A DNA stretch of 64,000 nucleotides. It comes from a virus (Duplodnaviria > Caudoviricetes). Shown in pieces: positions 35,118-59,467 of the stretch. The stretch lies in IMG/VR virus record IMGVR_UViG_3300050821_001527, positions 1-64,000 of that record; one strand, 5' to 3'. The position numbers and the translations under genes are program-made. The stretch's first letter is position 1. Every line of letters starts with the position of its first letter. Below the pieces are notes generated by a model, which was given only the letters and a program-made list of their open reading frames with translations, was not told the origin of the DNA and ran no database searches.

Positions 35118-36794
35118 ATGGACATTAAACAGAACGTGAAATACGCTCTTGAAGGGAAGTTCAAGGTTGATATTTACAATAAGGAAGGGAAGTTGATTGA
35201 ATCAACCGACTGGTTCAACAATTTCATCACTCCTACTGGGCTGTCCTACATCTACAAATACAATTTTGCCGACTGTTTCAGGTTTCTGTCCTTGGGTAAT
35301 GGAACCGCGCAAAACTCGGGCAATAAAGACGGAACCGGGCCGGGAACTACTGGCCTTTCTTCTCCAATCCCTTTCGTCCTCACAAATCTTGGATACGACA
35401 CGTCAATCACGGGATACCCCGGCGTCGTGAATCCGAATTCTTGGAGCGGGGCTTTGAGCCTGCAATATATCGGGCCTTGGGGCTACGCGGTTGGGGCCGG
35501 AATCACGGAAGAACTTACCGGCCCTCGTTTCTATCGAGCATGGAGAATTCCTTACTACCAGCAAGAGGGTTCGCCGACCTTGATTACTGGCGGGGACTTG
35601 CAAGTCCAAGAATTTTCTGTATTCCCTTCCAGCGGAGAAGACCCTACTGGCCGTTACGCTTTCAGCCGTGTCAGAAAACCAGTTACCATCCCAAACGGCA
35701 CCTATGCTTACGTCTCATACCAACTGGCCATCAATTTGACCAGCAATATCATCCAGCCGCTTACGGGTGGGACTTTCAATACGGGCAACGCCGATGTTTC
35801 CTTCGAGAGTTTGCAGGTAGGGGAATGGGCGAAACTAAGCGGAAACTACCGACAGGTGTATCATGGTTTGGCTTGGATTGATGCAAATGGTGCCTCTCTG
35901 GTTCCTCAATACGGGGCAATTATGGAGCCTTCCTGCACGGGTTTGCACGAAGCCAGATTCTACCTTTCCCCGGACAATGGGCAATTTGACGTTTCTACCA
36001 CCGGGGGGGCGCAGTCTGACGAATCCTCGGCTTATGCCGCCGATGGGCTTTATGGTTTCTCCCACCAAACTCCGGTTTGGAGAGGACAGGCCAATAACAC
36101 CTACGAGATTGATTACACTTTCACCAATACGATTGTCCCTACAGTATATAACAACACCATCCCGACTCTTACCGCCAAGACGTTAAAGGCCAACATCAGG
36201 ATGGGACACGTAGGAAACATTCAGGACGTGATACCGTTTGCAATATACGATTACGATGTTTCGCCAAGCTTGGCTAGAAACATGTCCCCTATCGTTGACC
36301 CTATTGACTACGAGTATCAGACATATTCCAATGCGACTCCGGGCGTGAATGCGGACGCTACAGGAATAAACCCGGCCTATCCAGCGCACGGAAACCAAGC
36401 CCTGATTTCGACCAGAGGTTTCAATTTACCAATCACGGGATACCCGACTACCGGACGCAGCCGTCAGTTGATAAGAAGGCATTCATTCATGCCAGCCCAA
36501 TCGCTAGGAAAAAACACTAGATTTGGCTCTCTGGTTTATGCTTTCGTAGCCAACGGGAATTTCACGAATGACTTTTTCCCGACTCTCGACTGTCTATTCT
36601 ACGACTCTTCCGGTCAATATCTCATGTCTCACTATCGAGAGATTACGGGCTTATACTTCACCAACAGGGGCAGCGGAATCGTGGACGCCGCCACATATAC
36701 TGTTCCAGCGTTGAGTTTACCGTTCACACACAGGACATTTCAAGGGCCGGGAACCGGCGACCTGTATGGACACCCTGCGGAGCTAGGAGGCTAA
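35118..36794 (+). CDS. tail fibre/baseplate-like structural protein (paralog of 38514..40088)
   Basis: KFKVDIYNKEGKLIESTDWFNNFITPTG..FADCFRFLSLGNGT. Confidence 0.6.
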   Translation: MDIKQNVKYALEGKFKVDIYNKEGKLIESTDWFNNFITPTGLSYIYKYNFADCFRFLSLGNGTAQNSGNKDGTGPGTTGLSSPIPFVLTNLGYDTSITGYPGVVNPNSWSGALSLQYIGPWGYAVGAGITEELTGPRFYRAWRIPYYQQEGSPTLITGGDLQVQEFSVFPSSGEDPTGRYAFSRVRKPVTIPNGTYAYVSYQLAINLTSNIIQPLTGGTFNTGNADVSFESLQVGEWAKLSGNYRQVYHGLAWIDANGASLVPQYGAIMEPSCTGLHEARFYLSPDNGQFDVSTTGGAQSDESSAYAADGLYGFSHQTPVWRGQANNTYEIDYTFTNTIVPTVYNNTIPTLTAKTLKANIRMGHVGNIQDVIPFAIYDYDVSPSLARNMSPIVDPIDYEYQTYSNATPGVNADATGINPAYPAHGNQALISTRGFNLPITGYPTTGRSRQLIRRHSFMPAQSLGKNTRFGSLVYAFVANGNFTNDFFPTLDCLFYDSSGQYLMSHYREITGLYFTNRGSGIVDAATYTVPALSLPFTHRTFQGPGTGDLYGHPAELGG

Positions 36795-37431: not shown

Positions 37432-38514
37432 ATGCCTATTTACAATGAGCCTGTCGGAATCCCGTTCTCAGGTGTCCCGTTAAATCCAGACATAACGGGT
37501 TCGTTGGATACTGGCGTTTACCCGCACGGCTTCGGACAAGTTTTTGGAATCTACTGGAATCAAATAGCCTATCCTTCCGTCGCCTTGGCGAAGCACTCCC
37601 TTGATAGTCTGTCCCCACCCGGAGAAAGCGGGGATGTTTATTGGCCAGCCCCGTGTCCATTTGGGCAAAAAGTCATTCTTGGATTCAATCAAATTGAATA
37701 CTACGACCCTGTATTGGGTGTGTATCTCTACGATGAGTCGGGGGTGTTGAGGCAGAATAACCAACCAGTCGTTGACTTCAATTTCTCCTCAATCTTGCCC
37801 ATGCCGTCTGTAACCGGGCAAACACTGGGTTCAAACAACGGGTATTTTCTAACTACAGCTAGAGTCGGGAGAACCGGGGACGGAAGCTGGTCTAACTTCG
37901 CCTCTTTATCCATAGCCTCACCCAACTTCACGGGATATATCGCTTACAAAAGTGGAACGGGGATGCAGGCATTTGATGGCGGCGGGAACTTTGGAGATTA
38001 TACTGACAGCGGGGTGCTGAAAATCAAAATTGAGAACTCAACCCTCTACTTCAAGCCATTTACCCCCATGCTTTACCATGACGAAGTTCCACATGGAACA
38101 GGACTTGTCCCTTGTTGGAGGGTGACCGGACTTTTCGAGACATTGGCCGATATGACGGGAGATTTCAACAGAAGAATCTCTTTTACCCAACCGGGGAATC
38201 AATATTGTGTTTTCTTTTCCGGTTACGATGGCTCAACGCCTTTGTTTATAACCTACTTAAATGGAGGGTCTGGAATCGGGTATTTCAATGCCCAGCCCGT
38301 GATTCCGGCGTTCCAGCCACCCGAAGCCGTCCTTTTACACGTTGAAAACTCGGGGCTTTTGCCCAACTATGGACAGCCGACAAGCGATACTTTTCCTGAA
38401 TACGCGATTGTCAGGGGCGGATATTATCCAGCCATGCCGGTGTCGGTTGGTGTAAATATTTACATGACGATGGCGTGGGAAGCGGATTGCAGCGATGCGG
38501 AGAATTGCAGATAA
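37432..38514 (+). CDS. structural protein
   Basis: C-terminus GGYYPAM..IYMTMAWEADC. Confidence 0.55.
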   Translation: MPIYNEPVGIPFSGVPLNPDITGSLDTGVYPHGFGQVFGIYWNQIAYPSVALAKHSLDSLSPPGESGDVYWPAPCPFGQKVILGFNQIEYYDPVLGVYLYDESGVLRQNNQPVVDFNFSSILPMPSVTGQTLGSNNGYFLTTARVGRTGDGSWSNFASLSIASPNFTGYIAYKSGTGMQAFDGGGNFGDYTDSGVLKIKIENSTLYFKPFTPMLYHDEVPHGTGLVPCWRVTGLFETLADMTGDFNRRISFTQPGNQYCVFFSGYDGSTPLFITYLNGGSGIGYFNAQPVIPAFQPPEAVLLHVENSGLLPNYGQPTSDTFPEYAIVRGGYYPAMPVSVGVNIYMTMAWEADCSDAENCR

Positions 38515-40088
38515 TGATTACAAAGGCTAAACTTAACCTCAAGGGCCAATACAGGATAAAGGTCTTCGGTTCCGGGGACGTTCTGAAGTCGGATACAGAT
38601 TTCATTGATAATCTGATTACCGATTCGGGAATCCTGTTCCCATTCGACATGGCCTTCGCTGACACGTTTCGTTATCTCAATCTCGGAACAAGCACGACCC
38701 CGCCCTCCAATAGCGACACGGGGGTTTTCAGCCCTATTTCAGAATATTCGTATTTGGGAGCTTACGCAGCAGTTACAGCCGGAATATCCAATCCAGCAAG
38801 CCCAATGCAGATTCCCGATGACGCCTCTTATTCGCCCGAAGGCTGTGGAACTACATACCAGTTTGACTCAATTTCTCTATTCAGGACGTGGAGGGTTCCG
38901 TCCGGCGTTGGTTCGGCTACCGATGGAAATATCATTACCGAGTTTGCGGTTTCCCCCTCTGCTCCAATCGAGCTTGGAATCGCTACTTCTGGATATGCCG
39001 ATACCATTCCTTTTACCGTAAAGCCAGAGCATTCTTTGGCGTTTTCGAGAACTACTGGCAGAGTCGTATTGGACGCGGGAGACTATGCTTTGGTGACTTA
39101 CCGACTCAACGTGTATCCTTCCACCGGAGCGGCCCCTATCAGCGTCAACTTGAATACTGCTGGATTCGACCACGGGGCTTCCGATACATGCACGGGATGG
39201 TTGGGTCAGTTGACGGGGGTTCAGGGCATCGTTCATGCCGGAATCAAGGTTATCTCTGGCCCAATTCCGGTGGACACATCAACAGAACTTTCCACTCATT
39301 TTGTTCCACAAAGCCCTCATTACGGAAACAATTACTTCGGGGTGAGTTATACTCCCAGAGTTGGGGCATTGCTTGAGCCTTCCCATTCGACTTTGAATGA
39401 TGCTTTTGACTATGTTGCGTATTCGTCGAACGACCTTACTCAATTTGTGGCCACTCCCAGCGGCGGGCATATTGACCCGGCTATTCAAAGCCGTTTCTTT
39501 CCGTTTAACCCTGCTGGAATTAAGACAAGTGGAATTTGCGGGTATATCTACAACGTCCTTGGTCAATCGTCGCCAGTTCTCCCGAATAATATCCGCATAG
39601 GGTCTTCGCCCTCGGTTGTAGGGTATTCGGTTGCCCCAAACCAGTCCACGGATTTCCCTTCTTCTACCGACATTACGGTTGCGGCGAGTCCGGTGCCTTC
39701 TACCACAAACATTTTCAATGCTTCTCTGAACTTCGGCGTTGTCAATCGAGTTTATGGCTCGGATACTCAGTCACGCGCCCTGAATTTCACTTGGCTGGCC
39801 GGGGTTACAATTCCGGGCAGTCCAGATTTCATATCCTCCGTGGTAATTGCCCATCCAGACATTTACCCGCCTTCTCCAAGTCCGTCAGTCAGGAATACCC
39901 CGGCTACATTGTTCCCAGTGTTTGAAATGATGCTGAACACTATTGACGGAAGATGTATTCCTCCGTTGGTCGTAGATGGTTCCGCTACGGGATTCAATCA
40001 GTGGGCCGACGATACGGCGATAAAGCTGTTCTTCGATGGGACGCACAACTTGGGTCTAAGCTTTAACATAAGCTGGTCGAGGGTTTAA
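38514..40088 (+). CDS. tail fibre/baseplate-like structural protein
   Basis: MITKAKLNLKGQYRIKVF..DFIDNLITDSG..FADTFRYLNLGTST; start at the TAATG overlap. Confidence 0.6.
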   Translation: MITKAKLNLKGQYRIKVFGSGDVLKSDTDFIDNLITDSGILFPFDMAFADTFRYLNLGTSTTPPSNSDTGVFSPISEYSYLGAYAAVTAGISNPASPMQIPDDASYSPEGCGTTYQFDSISLFRTWRVPSGVGSATDGNIITEFAVSPSAPIELGIATSGYADTIPFTVKPEHSLAFSRTTGRVVLDAGDYALVTYRLNVYPSTGAAPISVNLNTAGFDHGASDTCTGWLGQLTGVQGIVHAGIKVISGPIPVDTSTELSTHFVPQSPHYGNNYFGVSYTPRVGALLEPSHSTLNDAFDYVAYSSNDLTQFVATPSGGHIDPAIQSRFFPFNPAGIKTSGICGYIYNVLGQSSPVLPNNIRIGSSPSVVGYSVAPNQSTDFPSSTDITVAASPVPSTTNIFNASLNFGVVNRVYGSDTQSRALNFTWLAGVTIPGSPDFISSVVIAHPDIYPPSPSPSVRNTPATLFPVFEMMLNTIDGRCIPPLVVDGSATGFNQWADDTAIKLFFDGTHNLGLSFNISWSRV

Positions 40089-50297: not shown

Positions 50298-51065
50298 ATG
50301 AGCAAGAAATTTATCTACGAATTTACCGTTGACAAGATTGTCGAAAAAGACGTTCCCGTCGAACGCAAGCCGGAAGACGACCCTAGCGTTACCGCAACGC
50401 GCAAGGAGAAAGTCGCGGAGCCTGTCAAATTCCGCATCCTCAAGCCGACCCGCAAACTTTACGACTTGGCCGAAATCTTCTTGGCCAAAACAATTTCCGA
50501 TTACGTCCGTGAAGGCATTATGCCCATCACTTTGGTCGCCAAACGATTCGGTGATGACGGCGGCGTCCTTACTACCAAGGAGCAGGAATACATCGTTGAA
50601 CTGCAAAAACGCATTGACGAAAATCAGAAGAAACTGATTGCCCTTTCCGCACCGAAGAAGGAAGGAGAACCGGAACCCGAAACCATTTCCCCGCAGCAAC
50701 GCGCCGACCTGTTCGTGGATATGATGAAGACTCAGGTGGAGATTGACAACATCCGAAATTCCTACCTGTCTCTTTACGAAAATACAGCCGAAATGAAGGC
50801 TCGTAAGAAGACGATTGAATGGTGGATTACGCAATTAAGCTACCACGGCGAGGGTGAGAAGGAATATTTCCCGCAGACCTCCTTCTTCGAGCGTTACAAG
50901 GCATACGTTGATACCTTGGACGGAGACAGTGATTTCGATAAGAAAGTCGTGTCGAAGTTTTCCTACCTGATAAGCACTTGGTTCTCCAACATCAACACCG
51001 CGCTTACCGAAGAAGACTTCAAAGCCGCCGACAAGCACTTTGAAGAAAATGTAGCCGATGAGTGA
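50298..51065 (+). CDS. tail assembly chaperone (putative)
   Basis: position between tube and TMP; acidic, helical. Confidence 0.5.
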   Translation: MSKKFIYEFTVDKIVEKDVPVERKPEDDPSVTATRKEKVAEPVKFRILKPTRKLYDLAEIFLAKTISDYVREGIMPITLVAKRFGDDGGVLTTKEQEYIVELQKRIDENQKKLIALSAPKKEGEPEPETISPQQRADLFVDMMKTQVEIDNIRNSYLSLYENTAEMKARKKTIEWWITQLSYHGEGEKEYFPQTSFFERYKAYVDTLDGDSDFDKKVVSKFSYLISTWFSNINTALTEEDFKAADKHFEENVADE

Positions 51066-51949
51066 AACCATTTTCCCCATTAACCGAGATAGAGAATCTC
51101 AAGCTGATATATCACGATATTCTCAATGGTTATTCGCTTGACGACAGCGGTGTTTATGTCAAGCACTTCTCCGAACAGTCCTACGCCCGAGTCCTAGAAA
51201 GAAAGAGGACGCTCGCCCTGTCCTTTAGGGTCGAAGGGCTTCCGACCAATGACGAGCGCGAGAAGGAAATGCTCGAACAGGGTCTATGGACTCAGGATAA
51301 GGAGGACAGGATTGAGCAGTTGAAGGTGAACATCGCCGACAACGAGAAATATTCCCAAGGCATCATCCCCTCCCAAAAGGGCGCGATTACAGCCATACTG
51401 GACAACCTCAAAACAGAACTCGCTTCCTTGGTAAATGACAAGCATGATATTGTCGGCCCCACATGCGAGAAATTCGCAGACCGTGAAGTTGAGAACTTTT
51501 TCCTGTTAGAACTGTTTTACAGGGACAGCGGACTGGCTCATAAATATTTCTCCGAGGACGAGTTTGCGGACTTGGACTATCAAGAGCTTGCCAAGTATAA
51601 GAAAATCCTCAATGCCGCCCTGACTAAGATAGGCGAGGAACATATCAGGCAGCTAAGTTGCCTGCCATTCTTTCTTAACTCCCTTCAAGTTGTAAAAGAA
51701 CGCCCGGAAAAATTCTTCGGCAAGCCGATTTCCGAGTTGACATTCCACCAGCATAACTTGCTCATGGGAGGACTCAGAAGCCACAACATCCACTCCCAAG
51801 CCGAAGGCTCGCCGCCTAGTTTGGCCGATTCCACGATTCAAGGGCTGGTGGAGTGGTATGACAAGCAGCACTCCATTATCCTCGGCAAGAACAGCAAGGG
51901 AGTCGCCACCAGCGGCCTTAGCATCACCAATACTGACGTGGTGCGATAA
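51062..51949 (+). CDS. tail assembly chaperone-like protein (putative)
   Basis: directly upstream of TMP; FFGKPISELTFHQ motif. Confidence 0.45.
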   Translation: MKPFSPLTEIENLKLIYHDILNGYSLDDSGVYVKHFSEQSYARVLERKRTLALSFRVEGLPTNDEREKEMLEQGLWTQDKEDRIEQLKVNIADNEKYSQGIIPSQKGAITAILDNLKTELASLVNDKHDIVGPTCEKFADREVENFFLLELFYRDSGLAHKYFSEDEFADLDYQELAKYKKILNAALTKIGEEHIRQLSCLPFFLNSLQVVKERPEKFFGKPISELTFHQHNLLMGGLRSHNIHSQAEGSPPSLADSTIQGLVEWYDKQHSIILGKNSKGVATSGLSITNTDVVR

Positions 51950-51991: not shown

Positions 51992-54900
51992 ATGGCAGCA
52001 CCCGAGATTCTATTGGCGGTAGGTGGGGATTTAACAGCGTTGAACAACGCTATTGATTCCGCATTGAGTCGTCCAAGGAACTTCAGGGGCATCAACGCCA
52101 ATTCCTTTACCGAACCTCTCGGTAGAATCACTGGAAAAGCCTCCGAATTCTCCAAGTCTATGGAGGCGTCCAACGCCCGTGTTTTGGCGTTCGGTGCTTC
52201 TGCCGGTGCGATTTACGCCGTTCACAAGTCCTTCGAGACTCTCCTGTCCTCGACGATTGAAGTCCAGAAGTCAATGAACCTTTTGGGCACGTTGTTCAAC
52301 GCGAGCAACGCCACGCTCAAGAACTTCTCCAATAGCCTGTTCGACGTGGCCAATCTGACCGGGCAGAGTTTCAGGTCTGCCACGGAAGCCGCCAACACGT
52401 TCGCCCGTCAGGGCTTGAGCGCGGCGGAAACGCTTCGCAGAACCAGAGACGCCCTGATTCTTGCTCGTATCGCCGGTATGGACTTCGGAGATTCGGCGAG
52501 GGTCATTACCACGGCCATTAACTCGTTCAACAAGGAAGCCCTAACAAGCACCGAAATCATCAACGCCTTGAGCGCGGCGGAAACTCACTTCTCCGTCAAC
52601 TCGTCCGACTTGGCTCAAGCCATTTCCCGTGTAGGAACGTCTGCTGAAAACGCGAACGTCACCCTGAACGAAACCATTTCCTTAATTACTAGCGCGGCCC
52701 AAATCACTGGCCGTTCCGGTTCGGTAATCGGTAACTCGTTCAAATCCATCTTCACCCGTCTCGAACGCCCGAAGGTTTTGGAAGACTTACAGCAAATCGG
52801 TGTTACAACCAGAGACGCATCTGGTAATGTTCTTCCGTTGGTTCAGGTTCTCAAGAACTTGGCATCTACCTACGACTTGCTGACCCCAAGCCAGAAGTCA
52901 TTCATCACGGAAGCTGTTGGTGGTGTCTATCAAATTAACACGTTGAAAGCCGTCCTTGGTGACTTGGGAAGCGGCTTTAGTGTCTATGACCGCGTTCTCA
53001 AGACGGTTGAAGGTTCGACTTCATCCGTCATTGACCGTAACAACCAACTCAACGAAACAATTTCCGCGAAGCTCAATGCCACCCTCAACAACCTAATCCA
53101 AGCCGGTTCCAAGGTTGGAAACTTGGTTATTGCACCTTCGCTCGGCAAGGGAGCCGATTTGGGCGCGAACTGGATGAAGGGTATTTCGGAAGCCATTGAT
53201 TCAAAGTCCTTGGGCGGAGATTTGGCGCGTGGGCTGCTCAAGGGTCTTGGAGACGTTATCAGCGGGCCGGGAGTCCAGTTTATTACGTTTGCCATGCTCA
53301 AGTTGTTCCAGAACCTTGCGACGTTCGCGGCCAAGTCTGTTGGAGAATTCACCGGGGTTTCCACAAAGGCGAAGGAACTTGAACTTACTCAGGTTCAGGT
53401 CTTGCAGCAGTTGCTCCAACAGCCAAAGGTCTTGGAGTCCATCAAGACTGGGACGATGACGGTTGACCAAGCCGCCAAGCAAGTTTTCAGAGATATTCAG
53501 GCGCAGAATTCCGCCTTGGAAGCCCAGTTGGGACTTGCGCGTTTGATTGCCAAAACGGGCATGACTGGCGGCGTGTCTGTTCAGGGAACCAAGTATAGGG
53601 CCGCTTCGGGTTATGTTCCGAGTTTCTTTGACGAGTTCGCTATGGAAGAAGCCCACGCCAAGTCCTTGGGTGCGGCGGCTCCTAGAGCGCACTTCGGCAA
53701 GGGAACCATTGGTGGCCGCAAATTTATTATGAACTCTCAGGAGACTGAGATTCCTAATTTTGGCTCCAACGGAGACTCGGCGGTTATACCGAACTACTCG
53801 AAGGGCTTTGTTCCTAATCTCGCTGTTGGCCGCGAAGACATCTTGACATCCAGAGATAAGCTTAGAAAGCACACCGGCAGAGTCGCCAGCTTGTTTGTCG
53901 CTGAAAAGGGTGCGAGGGAATACGGCGAATTCTACAACGTATTCCGCTACTCCGATAAGGAAAAGGTCAACTTCCTGCCGGAAATCGAAAAGTTCGTATC
54001 AGAAAGAACGGACAAGGCACCAATTCCTACCGGGGGAAGGGGAGCTATGTCTGCTTTGGCGGGCGTCATCTTTGAAGCTCTAATCAGAAAAAAGGCCCAA
54101 ATCGGAAACGTCGAAGACGCTAACTTCGACATTCCAAGTGTTAGGGCTGTCAAGAAAAACCTGACTCCATTTTTCGGAGATTCCGTTGATGGCGGGTTGC
54201 TGGATGCCGGTGACTTCAAAATTTCCGACTCGGTTCGCGCCAGAAAGAGCCTAGAAAAGAAAATCATCAACAGACTCGATTCCATGCCTAACATGAAGGC
54301 GGAAGGTCACTACCCTGATTCCGCTTACGGGCCATACGGAAAGACAATCACCAACGCTTCTTCCCAAGGTCTTCCGGGTATGCTCGAAGGCGCGGAATTC
54401 ATCGGCAGCGGAGTCCAAGGGGTTGTATATAAATACACTCTGCCAAGCGGCAAACAGAAGATTGTCAAAATTCCTAGAAAGCAGGAAGATGTTGGCCGTC
54501 TGCATGACGATGTAAGAAAGCAGAGGGCGTTCTATGGCTCCTCCCCTGACCTTGGAGGATATGTTAATCCGAACAAGCCATCCCTTTACCTAAACTACGG
54601 AGACTACAAAGAAGGCAGAGGAGCCGGTATTTCCGAATTGGAAATGCTGACAGGTGAAAAAAGGGTCAACGGCCTGCACAATCAGCAGGAGAGCAGCCTA
54701 CATCAGTCGTTCATGGGACGCCTAAAGGGTAATCCTAACGCGGAAGCCATCGCAAGTAGGGCTACCCGCATGACTCTATCAGATGTGAAGCGTAACTTCT
54801 CCAAGTATAACAAGGTTTACAGCAAACAGGGCAGGGGATTTTACTATGGCCGTAATGGGGCGGTAGGAAACTATACCCTCAATAATCTTCATCCAGCCAT

Positions 54901-57900
54901 CACTCCAAGCGGATTGATTTTCAAGGACTATGTTGAATCCAACGGCCAGAATTTAATTAAGGGACACTTGCTTGATGGGGTCGCCAAGGCGTATTCAAAC
55001 GTAGGTGGATACCCGGACATGATTCGCGGTATCAGGGAGAGTTACGTCAACCCGAACAATGGTCAAGTTTCCGTTTACGACTTTGCTGACGGATATATTC
55101 CAAGGTCTGACCTTTACAGTCTGCCTTGGAGACAGCGTGTGCGCGGCCATGACCGCCCGGTTCCTCCTACTGAAACCGCCGACAGATTCAGGGAGTATGA
55201 AACATATCTCTTGCAGGCCGGTTTGCCGAAACTGGGCTTTGAAGGAGTCCACGACCTAAACTCGGTTTTGGGAACAAATTCCAGAGCGGACTTCTTTGCC
55301 CGCCGAAGCGGAGTCCCTCACATCGTTGACGCCAAGGGTGGCTACAATGACGCCCAGCCTAGCGACATTGCTGCCAAGGAAGAAAGCTTCGCCATGCTCA
55401 AGCAGAATCCGAAGTTCTTGTCATTTCTCCGCAGCCAAGGCATCGTAAACCCGGACGAAGTTCGTGAAGCCATCGTGTTCGGAAACATGGGACACGGGCA
55501 GCGCAAGAAGCTGGCGGAAACTGGCAAGTTGATGATGGCCAATGGCTTCATGCCGAATCTTGCGGGTCTTTCATTCCAGCAATCCTTCGATAAGGAGTTC
55601 GGCATCACTAAACTCACCGGGACAATGGGTGGGAAAACAGTCGGTGACATTGAATACAGCGGCAACGATGAAAAGGAAATCGAAGGCTTTGAAATCAACA
55701 AGGCATTTCGTGGAAAGGGACTGGCCAAGAAGTTCTACAAGGCTTTGGGCAGAGGTCGCGTATCGGGAACCCTTCTTCCTCAATTCGGCAATAATGGAAA
55801 TGCGTTCTTCCCTCAGTTGTCCCGCGCTAGAATGGCAAAGTCTGCAACGGTGCAGGGGTTTGACGGCTCGGAAATGACTGTTGCCCAATTCGAGAAGCTT
55901 GTCCAGATGAACTCTGGTAATCAGGGCTTCTGGAATGATAACTCTTTTAACTTAATCTCTCACCACGCTCAGGGGTTCGTCCCGAACTTGGTTGACCCCG
56001 GATATATTTCCTCCACCTTGGAAAGAATCAAGAATGGAACCAGTGGTTTCTCTGACGCGGAGAAGGCGATGTTCCTAAAGAAGTTCGCTGGAAAAACCGG
56101 AGCCTTGGGTTCTCCGTTTGGTGTGGATATTTTGGGAATTGATGATTTGCCGCCGATGGTTCCTTTCTGGATTCAGAACGCAGCACGTAAGAAGTATGGG
56201 AAGGATGCCTATGTCAGTGTCCAGCCGCATTTGGCTGAAAAACTTCGTGCCGCCATAAAGCAAGACCCAAGCATTGTTCATAATTTCAGTGCATTGGAGG
56301 GGTTGTTCAGCGGCGGCATCGCGGCGACCTCGTTCGCGCAAGGATTCGTTCCGAACTTCTCCAACCCGCTCACTTCCGCCATCAATAGGGAAAGAGCGGC
56401 TGGATACAGTTCTTCCCAAATCCGCGTTGGGCATGATTCCGCATTGGTTAGCGCGATGAACCCGGATGGAGTTGGTGTTTATAACTCTACAGAAGGCTCT
56501 CTCTCGAACGGTATTGGCCTTGCTCGTCGCGCCGGTATTGACCCTAAGACAAAGGGCATGGCCAAGGGTAACATCCCTAACTTCGCCGATGTTGGAACTT
56601 CGATGGCTTTGGGAGGAATGCAGTTCTTGTTGGCTATTCCTCTTATCAGCGGTGCATTGCAGAAAATGACTTCTCCGTCGAAGCAGGCTGCGGAAGCTAT
56701 GGAGAAGCTTGAGGGAAGAATCACGAAGCTTACAAAGGTAAGTGCCCAATACGACAGTCGCTTGGAAAAGACCAATCAGTCTTACGAAATCACGATGAAG
56801 GCTATTGATGGTCTTTATCAGAAAGCGGCTAAGACGGGATACCTGAGTGGGGCCGAAGTATCCGCGCTAACAATGCTCGAAGGTAAGGCGGCGAAGGAAG
56901 AAGGGGCCATGAAGTTGTATGCCTCTGGAAAATCCAGAGCGGAATTGCAAAAGACCACTTCCCTAAGCGAGTTAATCTCAGAGCAGAAGAAAACTACGTT
57001 CGGACAAAAACTCTTTGGTGGAGAAAATTACGAAAAGACCTTCGCTGGCAAAGCCCAAGGATTCGGCTTGGTAGCGGGCATGGGTGCGGGAATAGGGATG
57101 AATGTCGCTGGTGAAATGATTGGCGGCGACAAGGGTAAGGCTCTTGGCGAATTTGGTTCAACCATTCAGACGGCAGGGCAAGTTATGGCTACAATCCCCG
57201 GCCCAGCAGGGCTTGTAGCGGGTGCCCTTGTGGTGATGAAAGGAGCGATTGATTTCGCTGATAAGGCCGCATGGGGATTCGCAGAGAAGATTAAGGACGC
57301 CGCGCAGGAGAAATTGACCGGCATTGATAACATGGATGCTGCGTCAAACGGACTTGCCCAAGCGATGTCGAATTACCAAACTTTACTTGACGACTCCCAC
57401 GCCACGAATACCGCATTATTGAAGGCTCAAGAGAAATACAAGACAGCCTTGAATAATTTCGTCGCAAGCGGATTTTCCAAAGACGACATTACGAAGGTCA
57501 CCGGTGCTGGAACAATGTCCGAACGACAAGCCGCGCTCCAAGAGCTTAACGAAAAAAATGCCAGAGAGAAGGAGAAGCAGACGACGATTTCCCAATCTGC
57601 GGATTTGGCAGAATCCATTGCAATCAATACTAAGAAGGATAACGTATTCAATCAATCTCTTTTTTCTTGGGGAGGAATGGGGAATTTTATATCGGGAAGG
57701 AAGGATATAGACGGCATTGAATCTTTGTGGAGCGGCAAAGCCGGGAAAAGTATCTTTGATGAGAAGTTCTCCAAAGAAGGTGGTGGCAATAACCTCCTCA
57801 CGAAGATGACTCAAGAGGCTATGGATAGCGGGGATTCCAAAGGATATATCGCGGATATGAAGGAGAAGGGCGTCCTTGATGACCAATCCGCTGGAATTCT

Positions 57901-59467
57901 ATCCAGAAACATACAAGCAACCAAAAAATATGTCACCGCTGCCGAAGAAATGGGCAAAATTATAGACCAGAACGTCGGGCAGCAGAGGGCGCAGCAACAG
58001 TCAATGGAACGCTACGCCCAAGGTCTAAAGCAACTCCAAAACGAATTGAGGACATTCGCGGGTGACGCGTTCTTCAAGCAGATGGACAATATTTCCGAGA
58101 GAATGAAAAGCGGAGCGAACGCTCGTCACGGTGATGCGGAAATTGCCGGGGCTTTGGCTTTAAGCTTGACAAAGGGCGGTGGGGTAAACAGAAACGGCAT
58201 CATTATGAACTCGGACGAGAAGGCTCTGACCGAGATTGATAACACGATGGCTAAAATTGGGGCCGACATGGATGTCGCGCTATCTGGCGTCAACGCCAAT
58301 TTCACCAAGGGTTTGACGGACTTGGTTAAGGGGGAATTCGCGGGGGCCAAGGGTGGGGCTAATGGAAACAATCAAGCTACATTCACAAACGAGCAATACA
58401 ACACTTCCGCTCAAATCATCAATCAGATTACCCAAGACCTTTTCAAGAATGGAAAGCTTAACGGCAGCGCGGAACAGACTCGCGGAACAATCGCCAACGC
58501 CATAGATGCAAGAGGCAGGGTGCTTCAAGGTGCTGACCCCGGCATCAGCGCGTTGTTGAGACAGTCCGCGAACTCATTGGTTGGTTCCAAGGGGCAAGAG
58601 CTAATCCAACAGCAGTTGCTCGAAACACAGAAGGTATCCACCGAATATTTGGAGCAGACTGCCAAGGCTACAATCGAGTCCAAGGACAAGTTGCAGCAGA
58701 TGATTAACCAGAGAATCCTTGCTGCGGGCGGGGGTGTAAGCTCGTTCACTCAGGATTTCGGAGCTTCCTATAGGAGAAGCCTCAGACAAGACATCAGCGA
58801 GTCTCGCTCTGGTGTCCCAGAAATGGCCGGTGTCGGCGCAATCAACTTCCTCAAGAAAGCCAAAAACGACTTGGGTATTGGCGAAGGGGACGCTTTGTTC
58901 ACGGACATGAAGGCCAAGGCTATTACCGGAGTCGAATCCGAACTCAAGAAAACCTATGGGGTTTACGCAAGACAGGGCTATAATACTCCGTCGGATGCAG
59001 GCATCCATGATATTGCCAGCAGACAAGTAGAGAACGAAGTCGGCGGGGCGTCGGTGAACGAACTGATGCAAAAGGGCAACGACTTGCAGGATAAGGCGAA
59101 TGGCTACTTGGTTCAGATTTTGGAAAGAAACGGCATGGCTAGTGACCAAACCAGTCGCATAAAGCTTCAAAATGACTTGTTCACCGGCAAGGGTATCACG
59201 TCGTTCCAGAACCAGTCGAACGTGGCGATAGACTCTCAGGTTACGAGGTCTATTGATTACGCATCCATGCAAATGATGATGGTGGCTGGCAAGATTGAAA
59301 AGGCGTCGGAAAATCTCAAGTCTCTCAAGGGAGAAATTGACATTACGATTACGCAAATTAAAGAAAACGACCCAGCGGGCAAGCGCACGACAAGACAGAG
59401 CGCGATTCTCGAATCGGTAAAATCCGCTCAGACTAAGGCACCGTCTGACGTATATCAGAACATGTAA
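51992..59467 (+). CDS. tape measure protein (TP901-like N-terminus) with internal enzyme-like cargo cassette
   Basis: LGRITGKASEFSKSMEASNARVLAFGAS; A..FARQGL..SGSVIGNSFKSIFTRL; TM helices; 2491 aa. Confidence 0.9.
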   Translation: MAAPEILLAVGGDLTALNNAIDSALSRPRNFRGINANSFTEPLGRITGKASEFSKSMEASNARVLAFGASAGAIYAVHKSFETLLSSTIEVQKSMNLLGTLFNASNATLKNFSNSLFDVANLTGQSFRSATEAANTFARQGLSAAETLRRTRDALILARIAGMDFGDSARVITTAINSFNKEALTSTEIINALSAAETHFSVNSSDLAQAISRVGTSAENANVTLNETISLITSAAQITGRSGSVIGNSFKSIFTRLERPKVLEDLQQIGVTTRDASGNVLPLVQVLKNLASTYDLLTPSQKSFITEAVGGVYQINTLKAVLGDLGSGFSVYDRVLKTVEGSTSSVIDRNNQLNETISAKLNATLNNLIQAGSKVGNLVIAPSLGKGADLGANWMKGISEAIDSKSLGGDLARGLLKGLGDVISGPGVQFITFAMLKLFQNLATFAAKSVGEFTGVSTKAKELELTQVQVLQQLLQQPKVLESIKTGTMTVDQAAKQVFRDIQAQNSALEAQLGLARLIAKTGMTGGVSVQGTKYRAASGYVPSFFDEFAMEEAHAKSLGAAAPRAHFGKGTIGGRKFIMNSQETEIPNFGSNGDSAVIPNYSKGFVPNLAVGREDILTSRDKLRKHTGRVASLFVAEKGAREYGEFYNVFRYSDKEKVNFLPEIEKFVSERTDKAPIPTGGRGAMSALAGVIFEALIRKKAQIGNVEDANFDIPSVRAVKKNLTPFFGDSVDGGLLDAGDFKISDSVRARKSLEKKIINRLDSMPNMKAEGHYPDSAYGPYGKTITNASSQGLPGMLEGAEFIGSGVQGVVYKYTLPSGKQKIVKIPRKQEDVGRLHDDVRKQRAFYGSSPDLGGYVNPNKPSLYLNYGDYKEGRGAGISELEMLTGEKRVNGLHNQQESSLHQSFMGRLKGNPNAEAIASRATRMTLSDVKRNFSKYNKVYSKQGRGFYYGRNGAVGNYTLNNLHPAITPSGLIFKDYVESNGQNLIKGHLLDGVAKAYSNVGGYPDMIRGIRESYVNPNNGQVSVYDFADGYIPRSDLYSLPWRQRVRGHDRPVPPTETADRFREYETYLLQAGLPKLGFEGVHDLNSVLGTNSRADFFARRSGVPHIVDAKGGYNDAQPSDIAAKEESFAMLKQNPKFLSFLRSQGIVNPDEVREAIVFGNMGHGQRKKLAETGKLMMANGFMPNLAGLSFQQSFDKEFGITKLTGTMGGKTVGDIEYSGNDEKEIEGFEINKAFRGKGLAKKFYKALGRGRVSGTLLPQFGNNGNAFFPQLSRARMAKSATVQGFDGSEMTVAQFEKLVQMNSGNQGFWNDNSFNLISHHAQGFVPNLVDPGYISSTLERIKNGTSGFSDAEKAMFLKKFAGKTGALGSPFGVDILGIDDLPPMVPFWIQNAARKKYGKDAYVSVQPHLAEKLRAAIKQDPSIVHNFSALEGLFSGGIAATSFAQGFVPNFSNPLTSAINRERAAGYSSSQIRVGHDSALVSAMNPDGVGVYNSTEGSLSNGIGLARRAGIDPKTKGMAKGNIPNFADVGTSMALGGMQFLLAIPLISGALQKMTSPSKQAAEAMEKLEGRITKLTKVSAQYDSRLEKTNQSYEITMKAIDGLYQKAAKTGYLSGAEVSALTMLEGKAAKEEGAMKLYASGKSRAELQKTTSLSELISEQKKTTFGQKLFGGENYEKTFAGKAQGFGLVAGMGAGIGMNVAGEMIGGDKGKALGEFGSTIQTAGQVMATIPGPAGLVAGALVVMKGAIDFADKAAWGFAEKIKDAAQEKLTGIDNMDAASNGLAQAMSNYQTLLDDSHATNTALLKAQEKYKTALNNFVASGFSKDDITKVTGAGTMSERQAALQELNEKNAREKEKQTTISQSADLAESIAINTKKDNVFNQSLFSWGGMGNFISGRKDIDGIESLWSGKAGKSIFDEKFSKEGGGNNLLTKMTQEAMDSGDSKGYIADMKEKGVLDDQSAGILSRNIQATKKYVTAAEEMGKIIDQNVGQQRAQQQSMERYAQGLKQLQNELRTFAGDAFFKQMDNISERMKSGANARHGDAEIAGALALSLTKGGGVNRNGIIMNSDEKALTEIDNTMAKIGADMDVALSGVNANFTKGLTDLVKGEFAGAKGGANGNNQATFTNEQYNTSAQIINQITQDLFKNGKLNGSAEQTRGTIANAIDARGRVLQGADPGISALLRQSANSLVGSKGQELIQQQLLETQKVSTEYLEQTAKATIESKDKLQQMINQRILAAGGGVSSFTQDFGASYRRSLRQDISESRSGVPEMAGVGAINFLKKAKNDLGIGEGDALFTDMKAKAITGVESELKKTYGVYARQGYNTPSDAGIHDIASRQVENEVGGASVNELMQKGNDLQDKANGYLVQILERNGMASDQTSRIKLQNDLFTGKGITSFQNQSNVAIDSQVTRSIDYASMQMMMVAGKIEKASENLKSLKGEIDITITQIKENDPAGKRTTRQSAILESVKSAQTKAPSDVYQNM

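Follow-up and report, generated by a model that had tools for sequence, protein, structure and literature searches.

Of all the proteins of a phage, tape measure proteins (TMPs) are those that reach the cell envelope first, and one may ask how much they do apart from fixing the length of the tail. The window analysed here, a stretch of 64,000 nucleotides that makes up the first 64 kb of a 202,882-bp IMG/VR virus record (IMGVR_UViG_3300050821_001527; CheckV completeness 91%), raises this question in a specific form, as it encodes a giant TMP in which a nine-residue tag recurs eight times between unrelated segments: what does a ruler protein do with such segments, and what is the tag for? The answer that we regard as fairly probable is that, in this uncultured jumbo phage, exchangeable enzyme modules delimited by the tag leave the virion together with the TMP, and that the tag is read by a partner. 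The ruler thus probably also carries enzymes into the host, because related phages swap whole modules at the tag.

To judge from its family matches, the product of the gene at 51992-59467 is a TMP of the TP901 type. Specifically, it scores 108.7 bits with PF10145 (cut-off 33.2) and 133.8 bits with TIGR01760 tape_meas_TP901 (cut-off 28.8), and 23 PHROG TMP families match aa 1-530, in agreement with the first-pass annotation, which had called the gene from the letters alone. NCBIfam contains nothing for the protein beyond this TMP domain, and PHROGs nothing for any module of the cassette. The N-terminal module F1 is 44-84% identical among 46 homologues. For the C-terminal half, identity with the corresponding parts of the five closest relatives is 30-38%, and hydropathy windows show hydrophobic segments at aa 1534-1558 and 1730-1754. 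The middle third (aa 538-1532), between F1 and the C-terminal half, is a string of independently folding modules connected by short disordered linkers. Five large modules (s2 to s6) follow one another in it, enclosed by two conserved adaptors (F3 and F2), as detailed in Table 1.

A regex scan places the motif glycine of the tag at aa 540, 605, 772, 1034, 1185, 1328, 1451, and 1526 (nt 53603-56587), exactly where eight copies of a repeated linker had been listed; the copy at aa 772, described as degenerate, is indeed so, and the one at aa 1034 is degenerate too. A chance origin of the copies is excluded, because the loose motif occurs eight times against a mean of 0.13 and a maximum of 2 in 5000 protein shuffles, and the strict motif four times against 0.002. 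When the whole 202,882-bp genome is translated in six frames, the TMP gene is the only real reading frame that has the strict motif. Moreover, the tag is a family trait: 46 of 46 homologous giant TMPs carry 2-13 copies, and the count per protein is 1-13 in a broader set of 92 non-redundant TMPs. The logo of 244 copies from relatives reads A-x-G-[FY]-[IV]-P-N-F-[AS], with flanks that are unconserved on both sides and rich in G, K, and S upstream. At the ends of the modules, the tag can be written with F or L in the eighth place, A-x-G-[FY]-[IV]-P-N-[FL]-[AS]. The motif strings are absent from the searchable literature, a scope that leaves subscription journals outside.

Structure prediction and codon usage indicate at which level the tag is maintained. 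In the AlphaFold2 (AF2) model of aa 1037-1453, both enclosed tags (model residues 148-154 and 292-299) have a predicted local distance difference test (pLDDT) score below 50 and lie between domains scoring at least 90, so that the tag is predicted to be a disordered linear motif outside any fold. Synonymous codons differ among the eight copies at nearly every position, and the copies have no long identical DNA word in common, which argues for selection on the peptide and not on the DNA. The fifth position of the core is occupied only by N in 66 of the 92 TMPs, is dominated by R in a lineage of nine, and is mixed in two, one of which is the window TMP (P0001); that one lineage has shifted from N to R in concert suggests a single common reader. 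In places the tags follow one another directly, without an intervening domain; adaptor F3, for example, holds three cores within 25 residues. In a distant relative (L036:8723-13249, TMP aa ~876-905), the place of F2 is taken by the tandem Arg-variant tags GYIPRFAK and GRIPRFAK and a QRFAR remnant, directly followed by a glycine-rich hydrophobic segment.

The exchange of modules at the tag emerges from the comparison of relatives. A search of 5.8 billion proteins returned the 46 homologues, all of them giant TMPs of 1540-4018 aa, which were cut at the tag and their pieces clustered; the procedure was repeated with 44 IMG/VR loci, and the comparison covered 92 non-redundant TMPs, all metagenomic and none from a cultured phage. 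The N-terminal module (~540 aa) is present in 92 of 92, and the 327 internal modules fall into 107 families, 74 of which are singletons. Between the adaptors, each TMP has from 1 to ~9 modules, and alignments of homologous modules are bounded by the tag on either side (median offset of 0 residues at each end). The adaptors keep fixed places and the accessory families vary in position between phages; for instance, the nuclease-type and GNAT-type modules described below are in reversed order in P0009. The commonest architecture has four tags and consists of F1, F3, one core module, F2, and the C-terminal half. Accessory modules are gained, lost, and reordered as whole tag-to-tag units, and the suggestion that the cargo would vary while the linkers and the flanking modules are conserved is borne out by the clustering. 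The longest tag-to-tag pieces of the relatives reach several hundred residues (95th percentile ~530 aa), and most of their modules lack a Pfam match, with PcfJ-like and GHKL-ATPase-like exceptions. These concern P0016 aa 1495-2139 and P0018 aa 972-1547, one of which contains a PcfJ-like domain (30.8 bits against a Pfam cut-off of 25), while the other has a GHKL-ATPase-like stretch near the cut-off and weakly resembles the C-terminal domain of phage G1 gp67 (E 0.0065). No PolyVal or peptidase Pfam family is found among the matches of the relatives' 92 cargo modules (E<=0.001).

The nature of the modules is clearest in the stretch comprising s4, s5, and s6 (aa 1037-1453), which was modelled as one piece by AF2 and in which three separate segments fold, two with high and the third with moderate confidence. 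As in the initial impression, the segments between linkers are unrelated to each other. Module s4 is accepted here as a PD-(D/E)xK nuclease-type domain with an intact site. Its predicted structure (pLDDT ~94) has an alpha-beta-beta-beta-alpha-beta order (H30-44, E47-52, E65-69, E72-79, H87-100, E122-127). Its 12 homologues, nearly all of which lie within other giant TMPs, without exception keep residues E34, D64, D77, and K79, which the model places on helix 1, strand 2, and strand 3. Its ESM feature neighbours are all Tox-REase families (-7, -2, -5, -3). The AFDB rows over s4 include DUF91/NucS-like and DUF559 proteins with a probability of 0.91-1.00 at low TM, in lists filled by the adjoining GNAT domain, and the BFVD rows include restriction-endonuclease-like proteins. 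Sequence and profile searches of s4 against PDB, Pfam, and NCBIfam gave no match. A stand-alone homologue of s4 (P0060) sits on a 1.5-kb contig and has no gene context.

Module s5 is predicted to be a divergent GNAT-fold domain with an intact CoA-binding motif. Foldseek searches of PDB reach a probability of 1.00, all 50 of 50 VIA rows are GNAT-fold or GNAT-family proteins (Z 7.3-8.9, rmsd ~3 A, ~107 residues aligned, model residues 151-291), and Atlas matches have a TM of 0.66-0.68 by the hit. Moreover, hidden Markov model (HMM) alignments to GNAT structures centre on an R-G-K-G motif that corresponds to motif A ([RQ]-x-x-G-x-[GA]), which binds the acyl-CoA pyrophosphate; across 11 homologues, both G are invariant and R is nearly so. 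The Pfam scores remain below the gathering cut-offs (Acetyltransf_1, 17.9 against 20.7 bits; Acetyltransf_CG, 19.2 against 30; Acetyltransf_10, 17.1 against 23.6), placing s5 as a divergent member of the GNAT group under no named family. For both modules, the classes that had been read from the letters, PD-(D/E)xK and GNAT, therefore agree with the fold evidence and with the conserved motifs. Module s6, the segment of moderate confidence, has three homologues, all within other giant TMPs.

The reading of the two modules upstream as a restriction endonuclease (REase)-like and a kinase-like domain has fared less well. The AF2 model of aa 608-1036 is poor (mean pLDDT 47.7). Module s2, far from being variable cargo as had been proposed, is a short divergent copy of a core module whose ~100-aa core is found by jackhmmer in 43 TMPs. 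The family conserves G, F, E, D, [DE]xK, and K residues, with the E/D, D, and [DE]xK columns of the order E..D..[DE]xK conserved in 27 aligned members; the REase-like pattern is thus real in sequence, but it has no support from profiles or from the model, on which no fold search was run. The model of s2 is helical, of low confidence, and has a helix between D and [DE]xK, the family profile finds nothing relevant among PDB sequences, the language-model feature neighbours are inconsistent, and hhalign considers the s2 and s4 families unrelated (probability 0.3).

Module s3 is an orphan, with no relative at E<=0.001 among 1.84 billion representatives and a single partial match to another TMP (P0061, 32% over 120 aa). 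Its model is confident only at aa ~797-837, where three strands and a helix surround a G-x-G-x-x-G loop (pLDDT 79-89), and falls below 50 elsewhere. The glycine-rich loop and the following Lys are kept in P0061. A kinase is possible and not established: the proposal comes down to the glycine-rich hairpin and the Lys, no kinase match is found in Pfam, PHROG, or NCBIfam, Kinase-PolyVal and Pkinase clusters appear among the feature neighbours at ranks 57 and 73, respectively, and the DF-A put forward for it coincides in part with the linker tag. Module s3 is flanked by precisely the two most degenerate tag copies (54299-54325, 55085-55111).

The adaptors have a distribution of their own. F3 was found in 44 of the proteins searched and is first in 39 of 40 clustered cases; its alignment has 13 invariant columns, and it contains two extra hydrophobic-P-N-[FY] cores, EIPNF and VIPNY. 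F2 was found in 34 proteins and is last in 49 of 57 clustered cases, and a profile search against PDB sequences returned no relative. A relationship between the two adaptors was considered and discarded, as hhalign finds nothing common to them except the tag. Among PDB sequences, the F3 profile picks up, repeatedly and weakly, the cell-wall-binding (CROP-type) repeats of clostridial toxin A (E 0.012, with no single stretch significant), a likeness that may reflect only a beta-hairpin.

Table 1. Features of the tape measure gene and its conserved neighbours (nucleotide positions in the window)
Feature	Residues (aa)	Position (nt)	Strand	Remark
N2 gene, tail-chaperone position		50298-51065	+	conserved neighbour, outside the cassette
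N1 gene, tail-chaperone position		51062-51949	+	conserved neighbour, outside the cassette
TMP gene (P0001)	2491 aa	51992-59467	+	one open frame of 2491 codons
N-terminal TMP module F1	1-537	51992-53602	+	conserved in all relatives; sole part with TMP family matches
Tag copy 1, AASGYVPSF	538-546	53603-53629	+	
Adaptor F3	543-607	53618-53812	+	conserved, first; 65 aa
Tag copy 2, SKGFVPNLA	603-611	53798-53824	+	
Module s2	608-774	53813-54313	+	short divergent copy of family-wide core module
Tag copy 3, AEGHYPDSA	770-778	54299-54325	+	degenerate
Module s3	775-1036	54314-55099	+	orphan
Tag copy 4, ADGYIPRSD	1032-1040	55085-55111	+	degenerate
Module s4	1037-1187	55100-55552	+	predicted PD-(D/E)xK nuclease-type
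Tag copy 5, ANGFMPNLA	1183-1191	55538-55564	+	predicted disordered linker
Module s5	1188-1330	55553-55981	+	predicted GNAT-fold acyltransferase-type
Tag copy 6, AQGFVPNLV	1326-1334	55967-55993	+	predicted disordered linker
Module s6	1331-1453	55982-56350	+	all-helical model, pLDDT 65-80
Tag copy 7, AQGFVPNFS	1449-1457	56336-56362	+	
Adaptor F2	1454-1528	56351-56575	+	conserved, nearly always last; 75 aa
Tag copy 8, AKGNIPNFA	1524-1532	56561-56587	+	
C-terminal TMP half	1529-2491	56576-59464	+	follows F2; hydrophobic segments

In the proposed course of events, the modules, as part of the TMP, would be compacted or unfolded in the tail lumen, and would exit the virion with it ahead of the DNA. 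Once in the envelope or cytoplasm of the host, they would target nucleic acid and proteins, to the benefit of take-over or counter-defence; whether this might precede phage gene expression is a timing proposed in the first-pass annotation. The tag would be a short linear motif for a protein partner (a chaperone or prolyl isomerase, perhaps, or else an assembly factor or a protease) and would mark the module boundaries for handling during assembly or after ejection, with module exchange at the tag as a by-product of keeping frame and function. Several points weigh against this proposal. The presence of the cassette in the virion, its ejection, and its entry into the cytoplasm are steps that we infer; three of the five large modules here are without an assigned fold or function, as are, in terms of Pfam matches, most modules of the relatives; and the largest tag-to-tag pieces, at the ~530 aa of the 95th percentile, are too big to sit folded in the tail lumen, so that an unfolded state in the lumen must be assumed.

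Other readings of the tag and of the modules have to be set against this one. A protease site, as proposed in the first-pass annotation, at which an endopeptidase of the phage or the host would free the modules after tail assembly or ejection, would suit a sharp motif with flexible, unconserved surroundings that lies exactly at domain boundaries, as well as domains that would have different targets, and for polyvalent proteins a processing into units has been proposed (PMC5512222). We nevertheless hold such cleavage to be rather doubtful, given that no peptidase domain was found in the TMP or in the 20 open reading frames (ORFs) of the window that were scanned (35118-63999; ten of them also against Pfam), that tandem tags with no domain between them, such as those of F3 and the GYIPRFAK-GRIPRFAK pair of L036, would be useless for release, that eight cuts before or during tail assembly would destroy the ruler, and that Asn gives way to Arg across one lineage. 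This last replacement also means that self-cleavage by Asn cyclisation cannot be general, and it was set aside, as nearly all copies of that lineage have Arg for Asn. Tandem tags and the concerted N-to-R change are explained by a docking motif no less well than by a site of cleavage. A particular form of docking has the tag bound by a host periplasmic chaperone or peptidyl-prolyl isomerase, in the manner of the SurA P1 domain, which would help the ejected TMP in its exit, solubility, and refolding. The core of the tag, [FY]-[IV]-P-N-hydrophobic, equals the core of WEYIPNV, a phage-display peptide that binds the P1 parvulin domain of SurA with a Kd of 1-14 uM (PMC11401910), and a precedent for the involvement of periplasmic chaperones in injection comes from HK97, whose genome injection, according to the work of Cumby 2015 as cited in PMC5099701, requires the periplasmic chaperone FkpA and the TMP of the phage. 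The disorder of the tag, its multivalent and tandem copies, which suit binding by avidity, and the lineage-wide concerted change, which suits co-evolution with one reader, would also be in keeping with it. Conversely, the likeness spans five residues and could be a chance result among many peptide motifs; the first aromatic residue of the Ar-X-Ar-X-Pro preference of SurA is not conserved in the tag, and the idea presupposes a diderm host with SurA. No phage-encoded parvulin (PF13616, PF00639) was found. We take the SurA likeness as a lead only and deem this form of docking unlikely. The same low expectation attaches to its fuller version, in which the tag would mimic a SurA client motif, shown at each boundary between modules and in tandem at the adaptors, and the ejected TMP would recruit host periplasmic chaperones or prolyl isomerases that ratchet it out and keep or make the enzyme modules competent; if true, the TMP would serve to inject proteins with the help of host chaperones, and its payload would be exchangeable.

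The modules may also be thought of as structural: they would space out or plug the tail lumen or aid assembly, and their enzyme folds would be kept only as scaffolds, with the tag anchoring a non-helical stretch to the tube or to tail chaperones and letting tube polymerisation pass. TMPs bind tail assembly chaperones along their length, as known for lambda gpG/gpGT, and two adaptors plus one module are fixed even in the minimal four-tag architecture, both of which would be in line with a structural role. Against it, the E, D, and DxK residues of s4 and the CoA-binding motif of s5 are invariant across 11-12 homologues at 21-61% identity, which is hard to explain without catalysis, and the accessory modules are diverse and mostly unique, the 74 singleton families being a signature of conflict-driven turnover and not of a structural spacer; a structural role is accordingly quite improbable in our estimate. 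Lastly, the tag may be kept mainly at the DNA level, as a recombination anchor for the in-frame exchange of cassettes, which was also suggested in the first-pass annotation. A parallel is offered by the delimiting motifs of polymorphic toxins (VENN in CdiA, for instance), for which such an anchoring role has been proposed, and the homology between relatives does break exactly at the tags. This is, however, the least credible of the explanations and very unlikely in view of the eight copies that differ in their synonymous codons and share no long identical DNA word. Delivery of tag-delimited modules together with the TMP, with the tag read as a peptide, is thus the reading retained here. If the modules are delivered, they would amount to an extensive and so far unused reservoir of take-over or counter-defence enzymes that act early, as well as a natural model for how a phage tail can be loaded with foreign proteins, and the tag would be an exact handle on how the tail accommodates non-helical cargo and handles it after ejection.

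The surroundings of the gene point to a phage lineage that, judged by sequence, is far from any cultured phage. A tblastn search of TMP aa 520-1560 against 50,697 phage records gave no match, and the matches of aa 1-612 among cultured phages are confined to the generic TMP domain of large siphophages (22-28% identity). Likewise, 17 of the 20 scanned ORFs, a range that includes both flanks of the TMP gene, have no PHROG match, and the Pfam scan of ten of them gave no credible match. The order of the tail module genes around the TMP is kept in 45 related contigs, and the same order of neighbour families recurs in 46 loci, with the TMP as the largest gene between the chaperone-position and the distal-tail genes, the functions of these neighbours being assigned by position only. 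N2 and N1 lie directly upstream of the TMP gene in 46 of 46 loci compared. The stop of N2 overlaps the start of N1 (ATGAGTGA), the frame of N1 is closed just upstream of its GTG start, and the junction has neither a slippery site nor a frameshift joining the two genes, in which respect the pair, on its sequence, differs from the usual frameshifted G/GT chaperone pair; neither protein has a match in the family libraries. Upstream of the head genes, the ORFs at 35118-36794 and 38475-40088 share an N-terminal match to the PHROG tail-fibre family phrog_4176, and their position relative to the tail module is unusual for fibre genes.

The phage DNA is present in two soil metagenome runs. In a soil metatranscriptome run from a study other than those of both DNA runs, six contigs of 151-265 nt match stretches of the TMP gene (window 52007-56794), including modules s2, s4, and s5, with full identity; this match establishes presence in an RNA library and does not by itself prove transcription. 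The scan of 185,579 prokaryote species with the adaptor gave one match, on a 6.9-kb contig in a Flavobacteriales metagenome-assembled genome, which is too little for naming a host.

Taken together, a clade of large uncultured phages has a TMP architecture that follows rules, with fixed adaptors, a nine-residue boundary tag, and more than 100 fast-turning module families, mostly without an assigned fold, and several known systems resemble it in part. One precedent is gp96 of Thermus phage P23-45 (Chaban et al. 2024, PMC10770324), a TMP of 5002 aa that includes, in its N-terminal part, a virion RNA polymerase responsible for transcribing the pre-early genes. In both cases an enzyme appears to be built into the TMP of a long-tailed phage, and that of P23-45, the one tested case of its kind, is delivered with the TMP and works before phage gene expression. 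Gp96 has one N-terminal enzyme, whereas the window TMP has an array, a repeated tag, and module exchange, and the two are related in sequence only as TMPs. Polyvalent proteins (Iyer et al. 2017, PMC5512222) are huge polypeptides that combine unrelated conflict domains, including nuclease-fold and GNAT ones, and are thought to enter the host with the DNA. The window protein similarly joins a predicted nuclease-type and a predicted GNAT-type domain with three other modules in one polypeptide; however, polyvalent proteins are not TMPs (the word 'tape' is absent from PMC5512222), usually carry a self-processing zincin-like MPTase, and are not described as having a nonapeptide tag. The window TMP, which works like a polyvalent protein and is not classed as one, showed neither a peptidase nor a PolyVal Pfam domain.

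Functional sequence other than the ruler is also embedded in the TMPs of mycobacteriophages, which, in the account of Piuri and Hatfull 2006 cited in PMC5099701, have peptidoglycan-hydrolase and Rpf-like motifs. Following that account, these motifs likewise act on the host at infection, but they are single, small, and directed at the cell wall, unlike the array of cytoplasm-type enzyme domains with a delimiting tag predicted here. The effectors Tme and Sle1 of contractile injection systems combine a TMP-like scaffold in a tail-like tube with an exchangeable functional domain, and one relative carries a nucleic-acid-targeting toxin domain (PMC11126660, PMC13277306). These belong to bacterial contractile injection systems and have one variable C-terminal domain and no repeated tag, in contrast with a phage TMP that contains a tag array. 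In polymorphic toxins, such as those with the VENN motif of CdiA or the PxxxxDPxGL motif of Rhs, and in MuF-fused phage toxins, a short peptide borders the conserved delivery part and the variable toxins, which include restriction-endonuclease-fold toxins; there is one border and one terminal toxin, usually together with an immunity gene. The window TMP shares with them the short peptide at module borders and, for s4, nearest feature neighbours that are Tox-REase families, and it differs in that up to 13 borders lie inside a structural virion protein. Enzymes in virion proteins are therefore of a known kind, with one tested case in a TMP, and what is new is the family-wide, tag-delimited array of exchangeable modules.

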